NCBI GenBank assembly: GCA_026707145.1
Contig: JAPOXK010000011.1
Coordinates: 35,908 to 99,907, forward strand
Direction of reading: 5' to 3'
Length of the DNA stretch: 64,000 nucleotides
Source: Chloroflexota bacterium
GTDB lineage: Bacteria; Chloroflexota; Dehalococcoidia; Bin125
The position numbers and the translations under genes are program-made. Positions 3,075-59,528 of the stretch are shown piece by piece. The notes beneath the pieces are model-generated. The model was not told the origin of the DNA and ran no database searches. It saw only the letters and a list, made by a program, of their open reading frames with translations. Every line of letters starts with the position of its first letter. The first letter of the stretch is position 1.

Positions 3075-3426
3075 ACCCCTCGATCAGCTGCACGTAGTTT
3101 CCGTCGGGATCCTCGACCGTCGATACCAGCCCGCCCCACCACTCCCGCTCCGGCTCCCGCACTACCGTGATCCCCAGCCGCCGCAGCCGCTCGACCGCCG
3201 CGCGCACATCGCCATCCACGAAGAGGTTCAGCAGATGGCGCGCGGGCGTGCGGTTCCGTCCGGCTATCTCGGAGTGCTGGACGATTCGCAGGTTCGCGCC
3301 CCCCGCCCGGAACACCGGGTCCCTGTATTTCGATGCGCGCGGCAGCCCCAGCAGATCCCCGTAGAACCGCGCCAGCTCCTCGGGCTGGTCGCTCCCCACC
3401 ATCACCGTCAGCTCCCGCACCTCCAT
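3067..3426 (-). CDS. VOC (glyoxalase/bleomycin-resistance) family protein
   Basis: 119 aa with the glyoxalase-like beta-alpha-beta-beta-beta pattern, ending ...EDPDGNYVQLIE. Confidence 0.65.
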   Translation of the reverse strand: MEVRELTVMVGSDQPEELARFYGDLLGLPRASKYRDPVFRAGGANLRIVQHSEIAGRNRTPARHLLNLFVDGDVRAAVERLRRLGITVVREPEREWWGGLVSTVEDPDGNYVQLIEGSR

Positions 3427-3430
3427 CGGC

Positions 3431-4267
3431 CTACACCTCCACCACGAGCCCGTCCCGCGCCACGATCACCGGGCCCGCGTACTCGCGGCTGGCCGTCTCC
3501 GCCAGTTCCGCTTCTTCTTCCGTCGGCAGCAAGTGCGTCAAGACCAGCCGGCCCGCTCGCGCCGCCGCCGCTATCCGCGAGACGCTCCCCACCTCGCTGT
3601 GAGAGCGAGCGAAGGCCGCCTTGATCGACCGTGCTCCTTGCGCGTCCAGCCGCGACGCGTACCGTTCGAGCGCGAGCCTGCCGTAGCACTCATGCATCAG
3701 CACGTCGGCGCCCCGAGCGAAGGCCGTCATCAGCGCGCTCGCCGGCCCGCTGTCGCCGCTGTACACGAGCACCCGGCCGTCCCCTGCGACGCGGCGCGCC
3801 TGCGCGACCAGCATCTCCGAGTGCGGCACCGTTACCGATTCCACCTCGAACCCGGCCACCCCCAGGGGCTCCCCTTCCGCTACTTCCTCGACGCGGACCG
3901 AACCCAGTAGCGGCAGCCGCCGTCCTCCGCTTAAGTAGCGCAGCTGCGTCCGCGCGTATTCCACCGCGCTCGATGCGTACTGCGCGGTTCCCGCCGGTCC
4001 GTAGACTGGGGGCGGCTCGCGTCCCCCGAACGCCAACCGGGTCAGTAACTCCGCCAGCGCCAAGGCGTGATCGAAGTGCAGGTGGCTGAGGAACACGGCA
4101 GCCACGCGCTCCAGCCCGATTCCCGCGGCCTGGGCGCGCTCCAGCGACCCCGGACCGCAGTCCAAGAGGATCCCGGGAGCGTTGGATGTCCTCTCGACGA
4201 AGATCGACGCGCCCGCCCGGCGCGCGTTCAACATCGACTGTCCGCTGCCCAAGATCGTCGCGCGCAC
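3431..4267 (-). CDS. MBL-fold metallo-hydrolase
   Basis: HLHFDH metal-binding motif (HxHxDH) and an N-terminal MRATILGSG... beta-lactamase fold start. Confidence 0.7.
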   Translation of the reverse strand: MRATILGSGQSMLNARRAGASIFVERTSNAPGILLDCGPGSLERAQAAGIGLERVAAVFLSHLHFDHALALAELLTRLAFGGREPPPVYGPAGTAQYASSAVEYARTQLRYLSGGRRLPLLGSVRVEEVAEGEPLGVAGFEVESVTVPHSEMLVAQARRVAGDGRVLVYSGDSGPASALMTAFARGADVLMHECYGRLALERYASRLDAQGARSIKAAFARSHSEVGSVSRIAAAARAGRLVLTHLLPTEEEAELAETASREYAGPVIVARDGLVVEV

Positions 4268-52550: not shown

Positions 52551-52823
52551 GGACGCCGGGGAGCCCGCGCCCGCCCGCGCTCCCTGCATCAGGGGCGCGA
52601 AACCGCCGCCGCCACGAGCCTTTCAGCGGGCGCGGCCCGCATCCTCACCCCGGCGGCGCGCCGGCGATGGCGCGGGCCGCTTCGCCTTCCGCCCCGGCCG
52701 CCCGGGGGCCCGGCGGCCAGGTCGCCTTCCTTCGCCTATCTCCTATGATTGATCGAGGAGCCGGCGGGCGCCGCGCGTTCGGGATCCGTCCCTGCGGAGG
52801 CGTTCGCGCGAGGGAAAGCGGTC

Positions 52824-54056
52824 ATGCAGCGCGATCGCACGCGGAAAGGGCTTGCCGTCTGGATCCTGGCGCTGGTCGCGCTGGGGACGTGGCTGGGCGC
52901 CGGGATGGCCCTGAACGCCGGCCTGCGCTACACCCCGGCGTCGGCCGTGAACGGAGAGGATCCGCTCCCGGCCCTGATCACGGTGACCCCGTCGGAGCGC
53001 ACGGCCCTCCCGCTCGGCGCCCCCGGCGAGGAGAACCCGTCCAAGGAGTGGACGGTGCGGGTGACGGACGCCGGCGGCGCCGGCGTGGCCGGCCTGCTCG
53101 AAGGCTCCTTCCGCCGGCTGTACGTCACTAGCGAGTTCGGCAGCCGCCTGCACGTGCGCTCCATCGCCGATGCCGCCGCGGCCGGCCGGGCGGGTGACTA
53201 CACCGTCTCCCTGGCCGCCGGCGCCGGCGCCGCGCCCGGCTCCCAGCACAACGCCCGCGTGACGGTGATCCGGCCCGGCTTCGGTCCGCTGACGGCGCTC
53301 ATCAACGTGGTGATCGGGAACCCGGGGGAAACCCTTGGCCCCGAGACCGGCGACGGCTCGGAGGACGATGCGGGCGGCGGCGCAACCGGCATCGCGGCGC
53401 ACAGCACGCACGTCACCAGCTATCCGCCTCTCGAACGGCTGGGCGACACCTTCCAAATCCGGGTCGCTCCCGGCGGCACGGTCTGGGTCCGGGTCACCTT
53501 CTTCGATGCGGAGTTCGACGCGGTGCCGGACGGCACCGAGGTCACGATCCACGAGATCGGCGCCAATCCCGGGATCGTCGTCGCGCTCCCGCGGGGCACC
53601 TGGCGCAGCCTGCTCGCCTTGCCCACGGCGCCGGGCGTCCCCGCTCTCGACTCCGTCGAAGAGTCCGCTCTCGGGATGGATCGGGGCGTGACCGAGGACG
53701 GGTCGGTGCACCTGCTCTACATCGCCTCGCCCGTGCCCCCGCCAAGCGCCGCGCCGCAGCGGATCATCGCGATCTCGGGGAATGCCTCCGCGCTGATCGA
53801 GATCTTCGTGGGCGCGGCCGACGACGAGCCCTACGTGCTGCCCCTCAAGCAGGGCGGGCAGTTCGTCCGGGCGAGCTTCGAGGCCCGCGCGGCCGACCTC
53901 TTCGGGGATCGGGTGACGGTCGCCTGGAAGTACGATGGCCCGGAGGCCGGATGGATCGCCTATATCCCGGCCATCGGCCTCGCGAACTTCGCCATCGCGC
54001 CCGGCGATTTCCTCTGGGTCGTCTCGCCGGGCGGCCAGACGCTCGCGGTGCCGTAG
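52824..54056 (+). CDS. secreted hypothetical protein with C-terminal GWNLV-type module
   Basis: TM/signal N-terminus and an unknown ~300 aa region. The terminal module is VTVAWKYDGPEAGWIAYIPAIGLANFAIAPGDFLWVV. GAGGGA Shine-Dalgarno. Confidence 0.7.
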   Translation: MQRDRTRKGLAVWILALVALGTWLGAGMALNAGLRYTPASAVNGEDPLPALITVTPSERTALPLGAPGEENPSKEWTVRVTDAGGAGVAGLLEGSFRRLYVTSEFGSRLHVRSIADAAAAGRAGDYTVSLAAGAGAAPGSQHNARVTVIRPGFGPLTALINVVIGNPGETLGPETGDGSEDDAGGGATGIAAHSTHVTSYPPLERLGDTFQIRVAPGGTVWVRVTFFDAEFDAVPDGTEVTIHEIGANPGIVVALPRGTWRSLLALPTAPGVPALDSVEESALGMDRGVTEDGSVHLLYIASPVPPPSAAPQRIIAISGNASALIEIFVGAADDEPYVLPLKQGGQFVRASFEARAADLFGDRVTVAWKYDGPEAGWIAYIPAIGLANFAIAPGDFLWVVSPGGQTLAVP

Positions 54057-54167
54057 CAGCGTTCTCCCATTGCTCTTCTGGCCTCTCGGGAGCGACGCCC
54101 ATACGATTGTCTGGAGCGGCCGGTGGCGGTGGCCGGCTTTGCAAGCAAGAGCCGGCCGGGAGTCTTG

Positions 54168-56552
54168 ATGCGGCCTCTCTTGGCAACTCTCGCACGGCTT
54201 GCCCTCTTCGCCCTGATCGTGATCGTGGTCGCCCTGCTGATCTTTCTGCCCCTGGCGGCCACGGGCGGCTTCGTTCTCTTCCCCGCCGCCGCCGCGCAGG
54301 ATGGCGCGGGGGAGGCGCCGATCTTCGTGGTGGCGACGCCGGGCGACGGCGGCGACGGGGTTTGCGACGTCTCCTGCACGCTGCGCGACGCCCTGTTGGC
54401 GGCGAACGCGGCTGGGGGCGCCCGCGTCCATTTCGCCATCGGCGCCGGCCCCGTGCGTCTCTTCCCCGTCCGCCCCCTCCCCACCATCAGCGGCCCCGGC
54501 ACGGTGATCGACGGCACGACCCAGCCGGGCTGGCGCGGCGACCCGATCGTCATGATCGACGGCGCGGCCGCCGGCGCGACGAGCGGCCTCGTCTCCATCG
54601 CGCCCCGGGTGGAGTTCCGCGGCCTGGTCGTCGGCAACTTCGCCCACTACGGGCTGGCCGCCCGGGGCACGGCCGCGGTCGCCAACCGCTTCCTGGGGAA
54701 TTGGGTTGGGACGGACCCGTCCGGCCGGGTCGCGGCGCCCAACCGGCGGGGCGGCATCGGCGTGGTCGACGGCGCCGCGCAGGCGCTCGTGGGCGATAGC
54801 TGCGAGGGCTGCGGCAACCGGCTGGCGGGAAACAGCGCGCCCGGCCGCTCGGGCTACGGCGTGGTGGTCGGCGGCGCCGGCCGCACCGGCTTCGGGCTGG
54901 TGGTCGGCGGCGCCGGGAGCTCGGCGGCGCAAGTGGTCAACAACACGATCGGGCTGGGAAGCGACGGCGCGGCGCTGCCCAACGACGCCGGCGTGCTGAT
55001 CGTCGACGGCGGTTGGGCCGAGATCGGCGGCGCGGGTCCGAACGAGCGCAACCTGATCAGCGGCAACCGCTTGGCCGGGATCGAGCTGCGCGACGCCGGC
55101 AGCAAGACCATGCAGATCCAGGGCAACTGGATCGGGCTCGCGCCCGGTGGCGCGGCGACGGTCGGCAACGACGTGGGCATCTTCATCCACGGCGCCCGGG
55201 AGGGGACGGCGCAGGTGATCGTGGGCGGGCTGCAGGCCGCCAGCCGTAACGTGATCAGCGGCAATCGCGTGGGCCTGGCCCTGGAGCGGGGGGCGCGGGC
55301 GATCGCCGTGATCGGCAACTGGATCGGCCTCAGCGCCGACGGCGCGTCGCCGCTGCCCAACGAGGAGGACGGCGTCTCCGTGCTGCGGGACACCCGCCAC
55401 ATCACCATCGGCGGCTCCACCGTGGCGCAGGGGAACTACATCATGAGCGCCGGCAACGGCGTGACCGTGGAAGGCGCGGCGGGGGTCTCCATCCAGAACA
55501 ACGGCATCGGCGTCATGCCGGACGGCTCGCTGGTGGGGAGCCTGGCCGGGATCATGCTGCGCAACGGCGCCCGGGAGACGATCGTTCGCAGCAATCGCAT
55601 CGGGGGCAGCGCCGCCGGCGTGCTCCTGCTGCACGAGAGCACGGTGCGCAACCGCGTCAGCCGCAACCTCTTCCTCGGCAACGCGGGGATCGCCATCGAC
55701 CTCGGCGGCGACGGCCCCACGGCCAACGACCCCGGCGACGCCGATGCCGGGCCCAACGGCCGGCTCAACACCCCCGTCATCCTGGGCGCGAGCCCGGAGC
55801 GCGTGCACGGCAGCGCGTCTCCCGGCGCCGTGGTCGAGCTCTACGCCGTGGCCGCGCCCGGCTTCCCCCAGCTCGACCGGAGCGGCTTTGGCCCCGGCGG
55901 CCGCTACCTGGGCGAGACGGTCGCGGACGCCGCCGGCGAGTGGTCGCTGGAGGCCGAGGTCGAGCCAGGCGCGGCCGTCAGCGCGATCGCGATCGACGCG
56001 GCCGGCAACACCTCCGAGTTCGCGGCCAACTTCGTCGGGGAGCAGATCGCGCTGTCGCTGGAGGCCGGCTTCACGCCCGTCGGCTGGTTCGGGGAGGAGA
56101 TAGAGCCCGCGCTGGCCTTCGAGACGATCGCGCATCGCCTGGAAGCGGTCTTCCGTTACGACGCCGGCGCCCAGCGCTGGGAGACGTTCCGCCCCATCCT
56201 GCCCCGCCACAGCAGTCTGGGCCAGCTGCGGCGCGGCGACGCGCTCTGGCTGCTGCTCTCGCCCGGTCCCCCGGTCGCATGGGCGCCGCCCGCCGCCCTG
56301 CCCGTCAGCCGCGCACTGGCCCTGCAGCGCGGCTTCAACTTCGTCACCTGGGCCGGGCCGCCGCGCGCGGCGGCGGAGGCGCTGGCGCCGCTCGCCGGTC
56401 GGATCTCCTCGGCGTACCACTGGAACCCGGAACGCGGGGCCTTCGAGATCGTCTTCCACTCGGCCCCCCTTCCAATCCGCGAGGTGATCCTGCAGCCCGG
56501 CGACGTGCTCTGGCTGAGCATGACCGAAGTGGCCGCCTGGCAGCAGCGCTGA
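54168..56552 (+). CDS. secreted right-handed parallel beta-helix repeat protein with two C-terminal GWNLV-type modules
   Basis: Signal/TM N-terminus and many ~22-aa beta-helix coils (GNRLAGIELRD, GNWIGL, ISGNRVGLAL). Ends with two module copies (GFTPVGWFG...GDALWLL and GFNFVTWAG...GDVLWL). Confidence 0.75.
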   Translation: MRPLLATLARLALFALIVIVVALLIFLPLAATGGFVLFPAAAAQDGAGEAPIFVVATPGDGGDGVCDVSCTLRDALLAANAAGGARVHFAIGAGPVRLFPVRPLPTISGPGTVIDGTTQPGWRGDPIVMIDGAAAGATSGLVSIAPRVEFRGLVVGNFAHYGLAARGTAAVANRFLGNWVGTDPSGRVAAPNRRGGIGVVDGAAQALVGDSCEGCGNRLAGNSAPGRSGYGVVVGGAGRTGFGLVVGGAGSSAAQVVNNTIGLGSDGAALPNDAGVLIVDGGWAEIGGAGPNERNLISGNRLAGIELRDAGSKTMQIQGNWIGLAPGGAATVGNDVGIFIHGAREGTAQVIVGGLQAASRNVISGNRVGLALERGARAIAVIGNWIGLSADGASPLPNEEDGVSVLRDTRHITIGGSTVAQGNYIMSAGNGVTVEGAAGVSIQNNGIGVMPDGSLVGSLAGIMLRNGARETIVRSNRIGGSAAGVLLLHESTVRNRVSRNLFLGNAGIAIDLGGDGPTANDPGDADAGPNGRLNTPVILGASPERVHGSASPGAVVELYAVAAPGFPQLDRSGFGPGGRYLGETVADAAGEWSLEAEVEPGAAVSAIAIDAAGNTSEFAANFVGEQIALSLEAGFTPVGWFGEEIEPALAFETIAHRLEAVFRYDAGAQRWETFRPILPRHSSLGQLRRGDALWLLLSPGPPVAWAPPAALPVSRALALQRGFNFVTWAGPPRAAAEALAPLAGRISSAYHWNPERGAFEIVFHSAPLPIREVILQPGDVLWLSMTEVAAWQQR

Positions 56553-56673
56553 GGTGGAGGCGGGGGCGCGCCGGCAAAACGCCCGCCGATAATGGCTTTT
56601 AAGCGCGGCGTTCGATTGACCGGCCGCGAGGCCATCTCTAGCCTTGACACGCCGCTGCGCGGCGGTCGACTGC

Positions 56674-56751
56674 GGTGGGCGTCGCCTAGAGGCCTAAGGC
56701 GCCAGGTTGTGGCCCTGGTATTCGTGGGTTCGAATCCCACCGTCCACCCCA
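56674..56751 (+). tRNA. tRNA-His (GTG)
   Basis: Manual fold: G-1, acceptor GTGGGCG/CGTCCAC (one G-T wobble), D arm GCCT/AGGC, anticodon arm CCAGG-ttGTGgc-CCTGG, T arm GTGGG-TTCGAAT-CCCAC, discriminator C, encoded CCA. Confidence 0.85.
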
Positions 56752-56815
56752 ACCCGATCCGTTGGAGAGCGCCGTCAGTGATCGGAACGTGACCGCAAGA
56801 TGATTGGAGATCGCG

Positions 56816-56878
56816 ATGCCGTTTGAAGGTTTGATTCGTTGGGTGCGCGGTATGATCGATCGCGTGCTGGGCCGCTAA
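56816..56878 (+). CDS. micro-ORF 1 (MPFEGLIRWVRGMIDRVLGR)
   Basis: GGAGA 6 nt upstream of the ATG, 20 codons, TAA stop. Confidence 0.3.
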   Translation: MPFEGLIRWVRGMIDRVLGR

Positions 56879-56957
56879 AGGGGTCGTTCGATCCCGCTCG
56901 CTCCACCGGGGAGCGCCGCTGGCGATCGGTGATGTTGGAAAGCGATTGGAGATCGCG

Positions 56958-57020
56958 ATGCCGTTTGAAGGTTTGATTCGTTGGGTGCGCGGTATGATCG
57001 ATCGCGTGCTGGGCCGCTAA
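56958..57020 (+). CDS. micro-ORF 2 (identical to micro-ORF 1)
   Basis: Exact duplicate 142 nt downstream. Confidence 0.3.
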   Translation: MPFEGLIRWVRGMIDRVLGR

Positions 57021-57089
57021 AGGGTTGTTCGATCCCGCTCGCTCCACTGGGGAGCGCCGCCGGCGATCGGAAGGGGAAGGGAGAATGTG

Positions 57090-57167
57090 ATGCCATGTTG
57101 TAAAGACATATTGCACCGTATGCGTGGCATGATCGGGAGCGTGGTCAATCGCGTGCTGGGCCGCTAA
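57090..57167 (+). CDS. micro-ORF 3 (MPCCKDILHRMRGMIGSVVNRVLGR)
   Basis: Purine-rich GGGAAGGGAGA upstream. 25 codons. Keeps the R.RGMI...RVLGR C-terminus with an in-frame 3-codon insertion. Confidence 0.3.
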   Translation: MPCCKDILHRMRGMIGSVVNRVLGR

Positions 57168-57238
57168 GGCCAACCCTTCGACCGAACCGGCTTCACCGGG
57201 GAGCGCCGCTGGCGATCAGAGCGTGACTGGAGATCGCG

Positions 57239-57307
57239 ATGCCGCTTGCACTTGCGGGCGTGATGCGTTGGGTGCGCCGTTTCGTCGACCGATTGCCGGG
57301 CCGCTGA
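57239..57307 (+). CDS. micro-ORF 4 (MPLALAGVMRWVRRFVDRLPGR)
   Basis: GGAGA Shine-Dalgarno, 22 codons, in-frame 2-codon indel relative to unit 1. TGA stop 10 nt before the lipoprotein GTG. Confidence 0.3.
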   Translation: MPLALAGVMRWVRRFVDRLPGR

Positions 57308-57316
57308 AGGTAACCC

Positions 57317-57880
57317 GTGTTCCCTAGAGAGGGACTCCGGCTGCAGCGGCGCGTGCTCGGGTGGGGGCTTCTTCTCCTGGGACTCGTCGCGGTCGTGCTG
57401 CTGGTCGCTTGCGACCGTTCCGACGACGAGGAGCGTCTGGCCGCCCAGCGGCTCTTTCGCAACTACCTGGTCCAGGCCGACAGTACGGCTGCCGCCGACG
57501 TGCGCATCCAGGGCTTCGTCGATACCCTCCCGCCCGACTTTCCTCTGCCCGACGGACTCGTGCTCCTCGGCTCCGGATTTACGGATACGGAGACCACCCG
57601 CGAGCTGATCGTGGGCTGGGAGTCCGACCAGAGCGCGGACGATCTCTACGACTTCTATCGCGAGGCGCTGGATACCGAGCCCTGGTCCATCGCCTCCGAC
57701 CCGCGCGTCATCGGCATCGACTTCATTCGCTTCACCGACGTGGATTACCCGGCCTTTGAGGGCGAGCTGCGGATCGCGCAAGAGGGTGATCAGGCCGTGG
57801 TCGTCCTGATCGCCCGCGAGGCGCTCGGCGCCCCCGGCGAAGAGGACGCCCGCCCCGCCCCGACCGGCGCCCATCCCTAG
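57317..57880 (+). CDS. lipoprotein, hypothetical
   Basis: Signal peptide with lipobox LLVAC, 187 aa, acidic mature domain. Confidence 0.55.
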   Translation: MFPREGLRLQRRVLGWGLLLLGLVAVVLLVACDRSDDEERLAAQRLFRNYLVQADSTAAADVRIQGFVDTLPPDFPLPDGLVLLGSGFTDTETTRELIVGWESDQSADDLYDFYREALDTEPWSIASDPRVIGIDFIRFTDVDYPAFEGELRIAQEGDQAVVVLIAREALGAPGEEDARPAPTGAHP

Positions 57881-59451: not shown

Positions 59452-59528
59452 GCGCCCGTAGCTCAGTGGATCAGAGCGTCAGACTTCGGATCTGAAGGTC
59501 GGGGGTTCGAATCCCTCCGGGCGTGCCA
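59452..59528 (+). tRNA. tRNA-Arg (TCG)
   Basis: Manual fold: acceptor GCGCCCG/CGGGCGT, D arm GCTC-AGTGGATCA-GAGC, anticodon arm TCAGA-ctTCGga-TCTGA, T arm GGGGG-TTCGAAT-CCCTC, discriminator G, CCA. Close to the E. coli tRNA-Arg scaffold. Confidence 0.85.

Follow-up and report, generated by a model that had tools for sequence, protein, structure and literature searches.

Between a tRNA-His gene and a lipoprotein gene of a Chloroflexota bacterium (contig JAPOXK010000011.1, assembly GCA_026707145.1), four open reading frames (ORFs) of 20–25 codons are arranged in tandem. The 64-kb stretch of this contig that was analyzed is referred to as the window, and coordinates are positions in it unless a locus is named; L-numbers (L098, L126 and so on) denote loci fetched from other assemblies. 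Comparison with related loci indicates that these micro-ORFs are very probably translated and selected. As a whole, we favor the reading that they are four real, translated micro-genes forming a young, clade-restricted family, with a role at the membrane surface or on a partner proposed for the products and with unit 4 coupled to the lipoprotein gene; we consider this composite reading reasonably probable. Most likely, the array represents a new family of micro-proteins whose genes are transcribed together with the tRNA from its promoter, and judging from database searches the family is without known relatives.

Organization of the micro-ORF array

The original prediction described four ORFs of 20–25 codons, each equipped with a ribosome-binding site, after tRNA-His, and all of them were recovered by ARAGORN, Rfam and ORF calls. 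The array consists of four ~142-nt units located directly 3′ of tRNA-His, each composed of a spacer, the Shine-Dalgarno (SD) sequence GGAGA, five bases, ATGCC, the ORF and a stop codon. The pattern SD-N5-ATGCC...TGCYGGGCCGCTRA gave 4 matches, against 0 expected. The array was detected by direct-repeat search and nhmmer, while TRF did not call it. The features of the locus are as follows.

56616–56644, plus strand: promoter-like element with TTGACC (56616–56621), a 17-nt spacer and TAGCCT (56639–56644), a conserved string of putative function
56675–56751, plus strand: tRNA-His (anticodon GTG), called by ARAGORN and scoring 57.3 bits with the Rfam tRNA model
56752–56815, plus strand: leader of unit 1, with SD GGAGA (56806–56810) preceded by a spacer and by a diverged version of the inter-ORF block
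56816–56878, plus strand: micro-ORF 1, 20 aa, MPFEGLIRWVRGMIDRVLGR, intact in 6/6 complete genomes compared
56879–56957, plus strand: inter-ORF 1, with a piece resembling the tRNA-His 3′ end (56886–56907), the block GGGGAGCGCCGCTGGCGATC (56908–56927), a spacer and SD (56948–56952)
56958–57020, plus strand: micro-ORF 2, 20 aa, the same nucleotides as ORF 1 in the window genome
57021–57089, plus strand: inter-ORF 2, with the block (57049–57068) and SD GGAGA (57080–57084)
57090–57167, plus strand: micro-ORF 3, 25 aa, MPCCKDILHRMRGMIGSVVNRVLGR
57168–57238, plus strand: inter-ORF 3, with the block (57198–57217) and SD GGAGA (57229–57233)
57239–57307, plus strand: micro-ORF 4, 22 aa, MPLALAGVMRWVRRFVDRLPGR, whose TGA stop codon (57305–57307) overlaps the SD of the lipoprotein gene (GAAGG)
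57317–57880, plus strand: lipoprotein gene, 187 aa, lipobox LLVAC, GTG start at 57317

Some details of the predicted unit required revision. The arrangement GGAGATCGCG-ATG, proposed for all units, is present in units 1, 2 and 4, but unit 3 reads GGAGAATGTG-ATG. The intergenic block GGGGAGCGCCGCYGGCGATC was thought to occur four times; three copies lie between the units, but only a diverged copy follows the tRNA. Furthermore, this block had been described as conserved, but across lineages the ORFs are better conserved than it is. As predicted, units 1 and 2 agree without any mismatch over an 81-nt stretch (SD, ORF and 4 nt). Unit 4 is indeed 6 nt longer than unit 1, but unit 3 is longer by 15 nt (3 + 12 in the alignment) rather than 9 nt. 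The start of the lipoprotein gene 10 nt past unit 4 was verified at 57317.

The base composition sets the array apart from its surroundings. Its GC content is ~0.60 compared with 0.70 for the whole window, and the GC content at third codon positions (GC3) of the ORFs, predicted to be ~63%, was measured at the close value of 0.68, as compared with 0.84–0.94 in the adjoining genes. A 132-aa ORF antisense to units 1–3 was also considered and discarded, as its frame is not conserved in L098 or L126.

Selection on the reading frames

The same four-unit array is present in six other assemblies, in which the lipoprotein is 88–100% identical to that of the window (L126, L098, L142, L141 and L139/L140). 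All six complete arrays have four units. The six-genome comparison comprises 24 complete ORFs, and 24/24 are intact, with the SD, ATGCC and stop codon all kept. Conservation of the frame in relatives had been set as a test beforehand, and starts, frames and stops are indeed retained across the homologous arrays. However, only 2.3% of random changes make a stop, so that open frames alone are weak evidence. The array could instead be a neutral, decaying by-product of duplication or integration at the 3′ end of tRNA-His, in which the ORFs remain open as the array is young.

The substitution patterns argue against neutrality. Between the window and L098, the 18 substitutions in the ORFs are distributed as 2/2/14 over the three codon positions. 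The ratio of non-synonymous to synonymous differences per site (pN/pS) is 0.25 in the ORF frame (Fisher p=0.003), as opposed to 1.56 and 1.91 in shifted control frames. Between the window and L126, 0/273 ORF sites differ, compared with 11/284 spacer sites (p=0.0009). Over the six genomes, the minimal changes by codon position are 14/12/32 (32/58 third; P=5e-4), a bias that cannot arise in neutral sequence. The ORFs change at half the rate of the spacers (0.222 versus 0.441 changes per site), and inter-ORF 2 is the most variable spacer, with 45 minimal substitutions over 72 alignment columns, in addition to 4 gap columns. Gaps occupy 19 columns altogether, every one of them in a spacer, whereas the 24 ORFs contain no frameshift indel, and the sole change of ORF length is an in-frame 12 nt in unit 2 of L141/L142. 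The neutral explanation is in keeping with the narrow distribution, the low GC3, the tRNA-3′-end-like piece in the repeat unit, as found in duplications and integrations at tRNA genes, and a nonsense codon in unit 4 of one strain. However, the retention of four units in six of six complete arrays and the lack of an integrase or other cargo also speak against it, and we consider it very unlikely.

In the ORFs, amino acid replacements are more conservative than expected of non-synonymous changes drawn at random (mean BLOSUM62 score 0.06 versus −0.78; P=0.003). The positional orthologs retain signatures of their own, namely MPFEG.., MPCCK..NRVLGR and MPLAL..RLP... The ORF 1 peptide is identical in 4/6 genomes despite synonymous changes. 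ORF 3 has accumulated most amino acid change (codon positions 9/4/10), and its MPCCK head and NRVLGR tail are kept in 6/6. Because of the third-position bias, the slower change of the ORFs than of the spacers, the confinement of gaps to spacers and the conservative replacements, these comparisons indicate that the reading frame and the hydrophobic/Arg pattern of the peptides are under selection. The proposal of selection on a peptide is thus borne out by frames kept in six further arrays, third-position bias and a pN/pS far below the control frames (1.6/1.9 when rounded).

The units have not evolved entirely independently. In the window and L126, ORFs 1 and 2 have the same sequence; they differ from each other in L098 and L139. 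In L141 (2602–2676) and L142 (2629–2703), unit 2 encodes a 24-aa chimera of a unit-1-like head (MPFEGVIR) and a unit-3-like tail (RVINRVLGR). The identity of units 1 and 2 together with this chimera points to concerted evolution, or to recombination or gene conversion between units. Some of the changes shared by units 1 and 2 reflect gene conversion and hence are not independent events.

The repeats might alternatively constitute a structured non-coding RNA or cis-element, acting for example in processing or stability of the tRNA-lipoprotein transcript, with incidental ORFs. A hairpin of CGCUCC/GGAGCG plus GAUC/GAUC is predicted after ORFs 1–3 in the three closest genomes, with one compensatory pair. 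At larger distances, moreover, the pS of the ORFs (0.16–0.19) is below that of the lipoprotein gene (0.27–0.28). Against this, a deletion in L139 removes one half of the hairpin, the hairpin has diverged in L141/L142, and the RNAalifold consensus over all lineages collapses to −0.72 kcal/mol. The z-scores of minimum free energy are +0.5 to +2.1, i.e., the region is less structured than shuffled sequence. Rfam matches only the tRNA in this region, all other matches being far below gathering scores. As the ORFs are the best-conserved parts and carry codon-periodic substitutions, a non-coding repeated RNA, which the original prediction had left open, is largely refuted and appears most improbable.

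Distribution of the array in Chloroflexota

The other loci were fetched via the contigs of lipoprotein homologs and via members of the two closest clusters. The lipoprotein has 143 homologs at E<=0.001, and the few with a source name derive from metagenome-assembled genomes (MAGs) of Chloroflexi/Chloroflexota; the window protein is identical to MCY3886622.1 from a 'Chloroflexi bacterium' MAG. When genome contigs were scanned with the 18-base spacer block, the matches listed were mostly due to chance in GC-rich genomes, and only L098 was real among them. This locus belongs to a Dehalococcoidia MAG and carries an array 93% identical to that of the window. A further copy of the array was found neither in the window nor in any fetched locus using the nhmmer unit profile, and blastn of the array against plasmids gave no match. 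At the peptide level, the degenerate pattern W-x-R...D/E-R...G-R-stop had 6 matches in metagenomes of the Joint Genome Institute (JGI) and 1 in IMG/VR, all of them by chance and in the wrong context. A literature search found no description of such an array and none of peptides of this kind in Chloroflexota.

tRNA-His is located directly upstream of the lipoprotein gene in every locus examined. L121–125, L129 and L137, whose lipoproteins are 70–81% identical, are devoid of the array, and here tRNA-His ends 11–67 nt before the lipoprotein gene. Because these array-less relatives carry the two genes directly adjoined, the tRNA-His-lipoprotein pair is, by this comparison, ancestral. Since relatives with a 70–81% identical lipoprotein have no array, the distribution indicates that the array is young and restricted to a narrow clade of GC-rich Chloroflexota, in which ~560 nt were either inserted or amplified locally. 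A foreign or young origin had been suspected from the low GC3, and the absence of the array from slightly more distant relatives is consistent with it.

The adjacency of the two genes is widespread and can mislead gene callers. The lipoprotein homolog P0013 is over-called in that it begins with translated tRNA-His (..VFVGSNPTVHP..).

Transcription and relation to the lipoprotein gene

Nine loci, some carrying the array and some lacking it (window, L098, L121, L126, L129, L137, L139, L141 and L142), share the string ATTGACC-N17-(C)TAGCCTTGA ~30 nt upstream of tRNA-His. The consensus promoter scan does not call this element, of which the −10 part is weak. The scan revealed no promoter-like site on either strand and no terminator-like site inside the array, although such a scan is weak evidence in a GC-rich genome. 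Given the conserved upstream element, the lack of an internal promoter- or terminator-like site and the lack of room for a lipoprotein promoter in the array-less relatives, tRNA-His, the ORFs and the lipoprotein gene are most likely on one transcript. A polycistronic RNA would be produced from the tRNA-His promoter, and each ORF would be translated from its own SD.

The stop codon of ORF 4 and the downstream GTG start of the lipoprotein gene are 9 nt apart, a distance shared by seven genomes. In these seven, unit 4 is in frame with the lipoprotein ORF and is separated from it by two in-frame stops (TGA, one codon, TAA or TAG). Translation of the lipoprotein gene is probably coupled to that of unit 4 as well.

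This arrangement raises the possibility that the ORFs are serial upstream ORFs (uORFs) or leader peptides. Translation itself would matter, by ribosome loading, protection of the leader or termination-reinitiation at unit 4, and the peptides would have little or no function. Like known leader peptides and uORFs, the ORFs occupy the 5′ leader, on its own strand, of the downstream gene, which is otherwise fused directly to tRNA-His, and the last stop precedes the start by 9 nt and overlaps the downstream SD; the second in-frame stop is conserved as well. A ratio of non-synonymous to synonymous substitution rates (dN/dS) of ~0.65 at larger distances is also expected if sequence matters less than translation. 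In contrast to known leaders, however, the array has four copies with conserved, distinct peptides, and the four positional orthologs each keep their own identity across lineages. The third-position bias and the conservative replacements reflect selection on amino acids. Neither scanning nor folding identified a terminator/antiterminator, i.e., an attenuator, or an SD-sequestering structure, and there are no runs of a regulatory codon. Finally, the strain with a nonsense codon in unit 4 retains an intact lipoprotein gene. We regard serial uORFs as an unlikely explanation, albeit one to be taken seriously.

The AlphaFold2 model of the lipoprotein has a predicted local distance difference test (pLDDT) score of 84. 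It gave weak matches to PsbP/DcrB/LpqN-like folds with template modeling (TM) scores of 0.30–0.37 and no functional lead.

Properties of the predicted peptides

Each peptide contains 4–6 Arg/Lys and 0–2 Asp/Glu residues, and among those scored the net charge, counted as Arg+Lys minus Asp+Glu, ranges from +2 to +5. The mean Eisenberg hydrophobicity is ~0. As the longest uncharged run is 3–9 residues, the predicted peptides cannot contain a membrane-spanning segment, and their shortness and polarity preclude a Sec signal. At the level of the family, hydrophobic periodicity peaks at 90–100 degrees (hydrophobic moment, muH, 0.65–0.76 for the short type; p=0.016). The products are thus pictured as Arg-rich amphipathic α-helices that would be too polar to span the membrane. 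Like phenol-soluble modulins (PSMs) or antimicrobial peptides, they would most likely act either at the surface of a membrane or on a partner protein; a membrane-surface role as such is put forward tentatively.

Searches of the peptides against Pfam, NCBIfam, PADLOC, PHROGs and the Protein Data Bank (PDB) gave nothing significant, the best match being a uL29 helix at E=4. The Pfam and NCBIfam models, including those of PSM families, did not match even at E<=10. A concatenate of three of the peptides yielded no candidate in a large protein database.

Comparison with known systems

The psm-alpha locus is a four-gene operon. Several related cationic, Trp-containing leaderless peptides are likewise encoded in tandem in an operon in multi-peptide leaderless bacteriocins of the aureocin A70 type, and the tandem direct repeats of type I toxins span roughly 140–500 nt. 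Among these systems, the architecture of the array is closest to that of the α-type PSM loci (psm-alpha-like, delta-toxin) by analogy, although it is not a member of them. The α-type PSMs are 20–25-aa amphipathic helices without a signal peptide, encoded by side-by-side genes that are too short for annotation pipelines, and they need an ABC exporter (PMC5442197). Both the α-type PSMs and the predicted micro-ORF products are 20–25 aa long and are primary translation products lacking a signal peptide, and in both cases the genes lie side by side with their own ribosome-binding sites and include duplicated copies. In contrast, the two have no sequence similarity and belong to different phyla, and the array peptides are much richer in Arg. 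PSMs have a dedicated ABC exporter (Pmt-like), whereas none is encoded among the neighboring genes of the array. Moreover, PSM genes form an operon controlled by quorum sensing, whereas the array lies within a tRNA-lipoprotein unit.

Peptides of the aureocin A70 type have 30–31 residues or more and their loci contain transporter and immunity genes, whereas the array encodes peptides of 20–25 residues and was accompanied by no gained gene. Precursors of ribosomally synthesized and post-translationally modified peptides (RiPPs), which the original prediction had offered as one possibility, need a nearby modifying enzyme and have a leader-core architecture. No RiPP enzyme domain was found in the neighboring proteins, and the neighborhood is the same in relatives without the array. 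As no modifying enzyme was gained with the array, RiPP precursors are unlikely.

Tandem duplication also raises the possibility of type I toxin-antitoxin-like loci, in which each unit would encode a small toxic peptide curbed by an antisense RNA or by mRNA structure. Like the Ibs/Sib, ZorO/OrzO and Ldr/Rdl systems, which have tandem ORFs of 19–35 codons, the array is lineage-restricted and missed by annotation, and its ~142-nt unit length and the cationic C-terminus of its peptides are in the usual range. Toxin genes of this type are often tandemly duplicated small ORFs, and ZorO was indeed found via a search for them (PMC8309996). However, those type I toxins that associate with membranes are hydrophobic and are predicted to contain a transmembrane helix (PMC8309996), whereas the uncharged runs noted above leave no transmembrane stretch here. 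The consensus scan provides no sign of an antisense promoter, and the spacers, which would carry it, evolve fastest. With no PADLOC or Pfam match either, we find this alternative improbable.

Origin of the repeat unit

The nhmmer unit profile match starts at 56741, inside the 3′ end of the tRNA, and the inter-ORF blocks have a counterpart after the tRNA that aligns with them (z=4.0). The pieces following ORF 1 and ORF 2 match the last 22 nt of tRNA-His at 19/23 bases, and 9 and 23 of 2000 shuffles, respectively, reach the score; they resemble tRNA-Arg less than tRNA-His. We propose an origin by tandem duplication, in which the duplicated segment of ~142 nt would have begun at the T-arm/3′ end of tRNA-His, crossed the spacer and ended with the stop codon of a first small ORF. 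Elements integrated at tRNA genes are flanked by direct repeats of the tRNA 3′ end, whereas the array has degenerate pieces after ORFs 1 and 2 and none after ORFs 3 and 4. No integrase or mobility gene was found, the ~560-nt insert has no room for one, and the flanks are syntenic with those of array-less relatives.

Derivation of the ORFs from the lipoprotein signal peptide was considered, and three tests went against it. The DNA alignment with the 5′ end of the window lipoprotein gene gave z=−0.5, peptide alignments gave p>=0.08, and a peptide profile run against 104 signal peptides scored barely above reversed and shuffled controls. The 5′ region of the array-less L129 (755–830) aligns with unit 4 of the window at z=4.9, which is suggestive and the sole such alignment.

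L129 also contains a 9-codon uORF starting from ATGCCG (MPQATKNER*) that overlaps the lipoprotein start.

The array might thus represent a micro-protein family soon after its birth. The first ORF would have emerged from the tRNA-His-lipoprotein spacer or the 5′ end of the lipoprotein gene and would then have been amplified to four with the tRNA 3′ end carried along, all four being selected as distinct Arg-rich amphipathic peptides expressed from the tRNA promoter. This full scenario is possible but doubtful.

Neighboring genes and other observations

The genes around the array encode a NosD-like β-helix protein, the lipoprotein, MgtE and a CxxCxxCC protein. The NosD-like gene (54123–56552, plus strand) is overlapped by a minus-strand ORF of 1238 aa (52743–56459), very likely an artifact of GC-rich sequence. 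In L137 (170–1922), an apparent frameshift interrupts the NosD-like gene; the contig has 2x coverage, and a sequencing error is the probable cause. tRNA-Arg (TCG; 59452–59528) adjoins MgtE, and this pairing recurs in relatives. The block of tRNA-His, lipoprotein, MgtE and tRNA-Arg is conserved, but its orientation with respect to the flanks is reversed in L124 and L125. Between MgtE and tRNA-His of L125 (3186–3840), ~13 tandem copies of CCCATCCCGCG (~3285–3415) are flanked by a ~90-nt direct repeat (3186–3275 and 3540–3640), with a partial inverted copy near 3810–3840.

Discussion

Several observations weigh against the reading of the array as four functional micro-genes. The organisms are uncultured, and translation is deduced from evolution only. 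Purifying selection on the peptides is weak at larger distances, as dN/dS is ~0.65 between the window and L139, L141 and L142, compared with 0.14–0.20 for the lipoprotein gene. The strain represented by L127/L128 carries a TGG to TGA change at a Trp codon of unit 4 together with two Arg to His changes, so that at least that copy is dispensable. The amphipathicity of single peptides ranks only within the top 6–25% of shuffles. No transporter, immunity, modification or partner gene was gained with the array, the flanks being as in array-less relatives. As for the proposed origin, the likeness to the tRNA 3′ end is modest (p ~0.005 and 0.012) and absent after ORFs 3 and 4.

L127 (1–50) and L128 (1–50) are the ends of short contigs from different samples that start at the same base of unit 4, suggesting that the assembly was broken at the repeat.

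Genes of 20–25 codons are invisible to standard annotation, and very few have functional evidence outside model bacteria. Here, comparative data alone point to four such genes kept by selection in uncultured Chloroflexota. The close relatives without these genes offer a clean 'before and after' for the birth and amplification of a micro-gene family that apparently took shape beside a tRNA gene and in part from it; if the birth scenario is true, the array-less sister lineages would keep the 'before' state. If the peptides are membrane-active, they would provide a new antimicrobial or surfactant-like scaffold. If the ORFs mainly tune the lipoprotein gene, the array would instead represent an unusual case of four uORFs expressed from a tRNA promoter.

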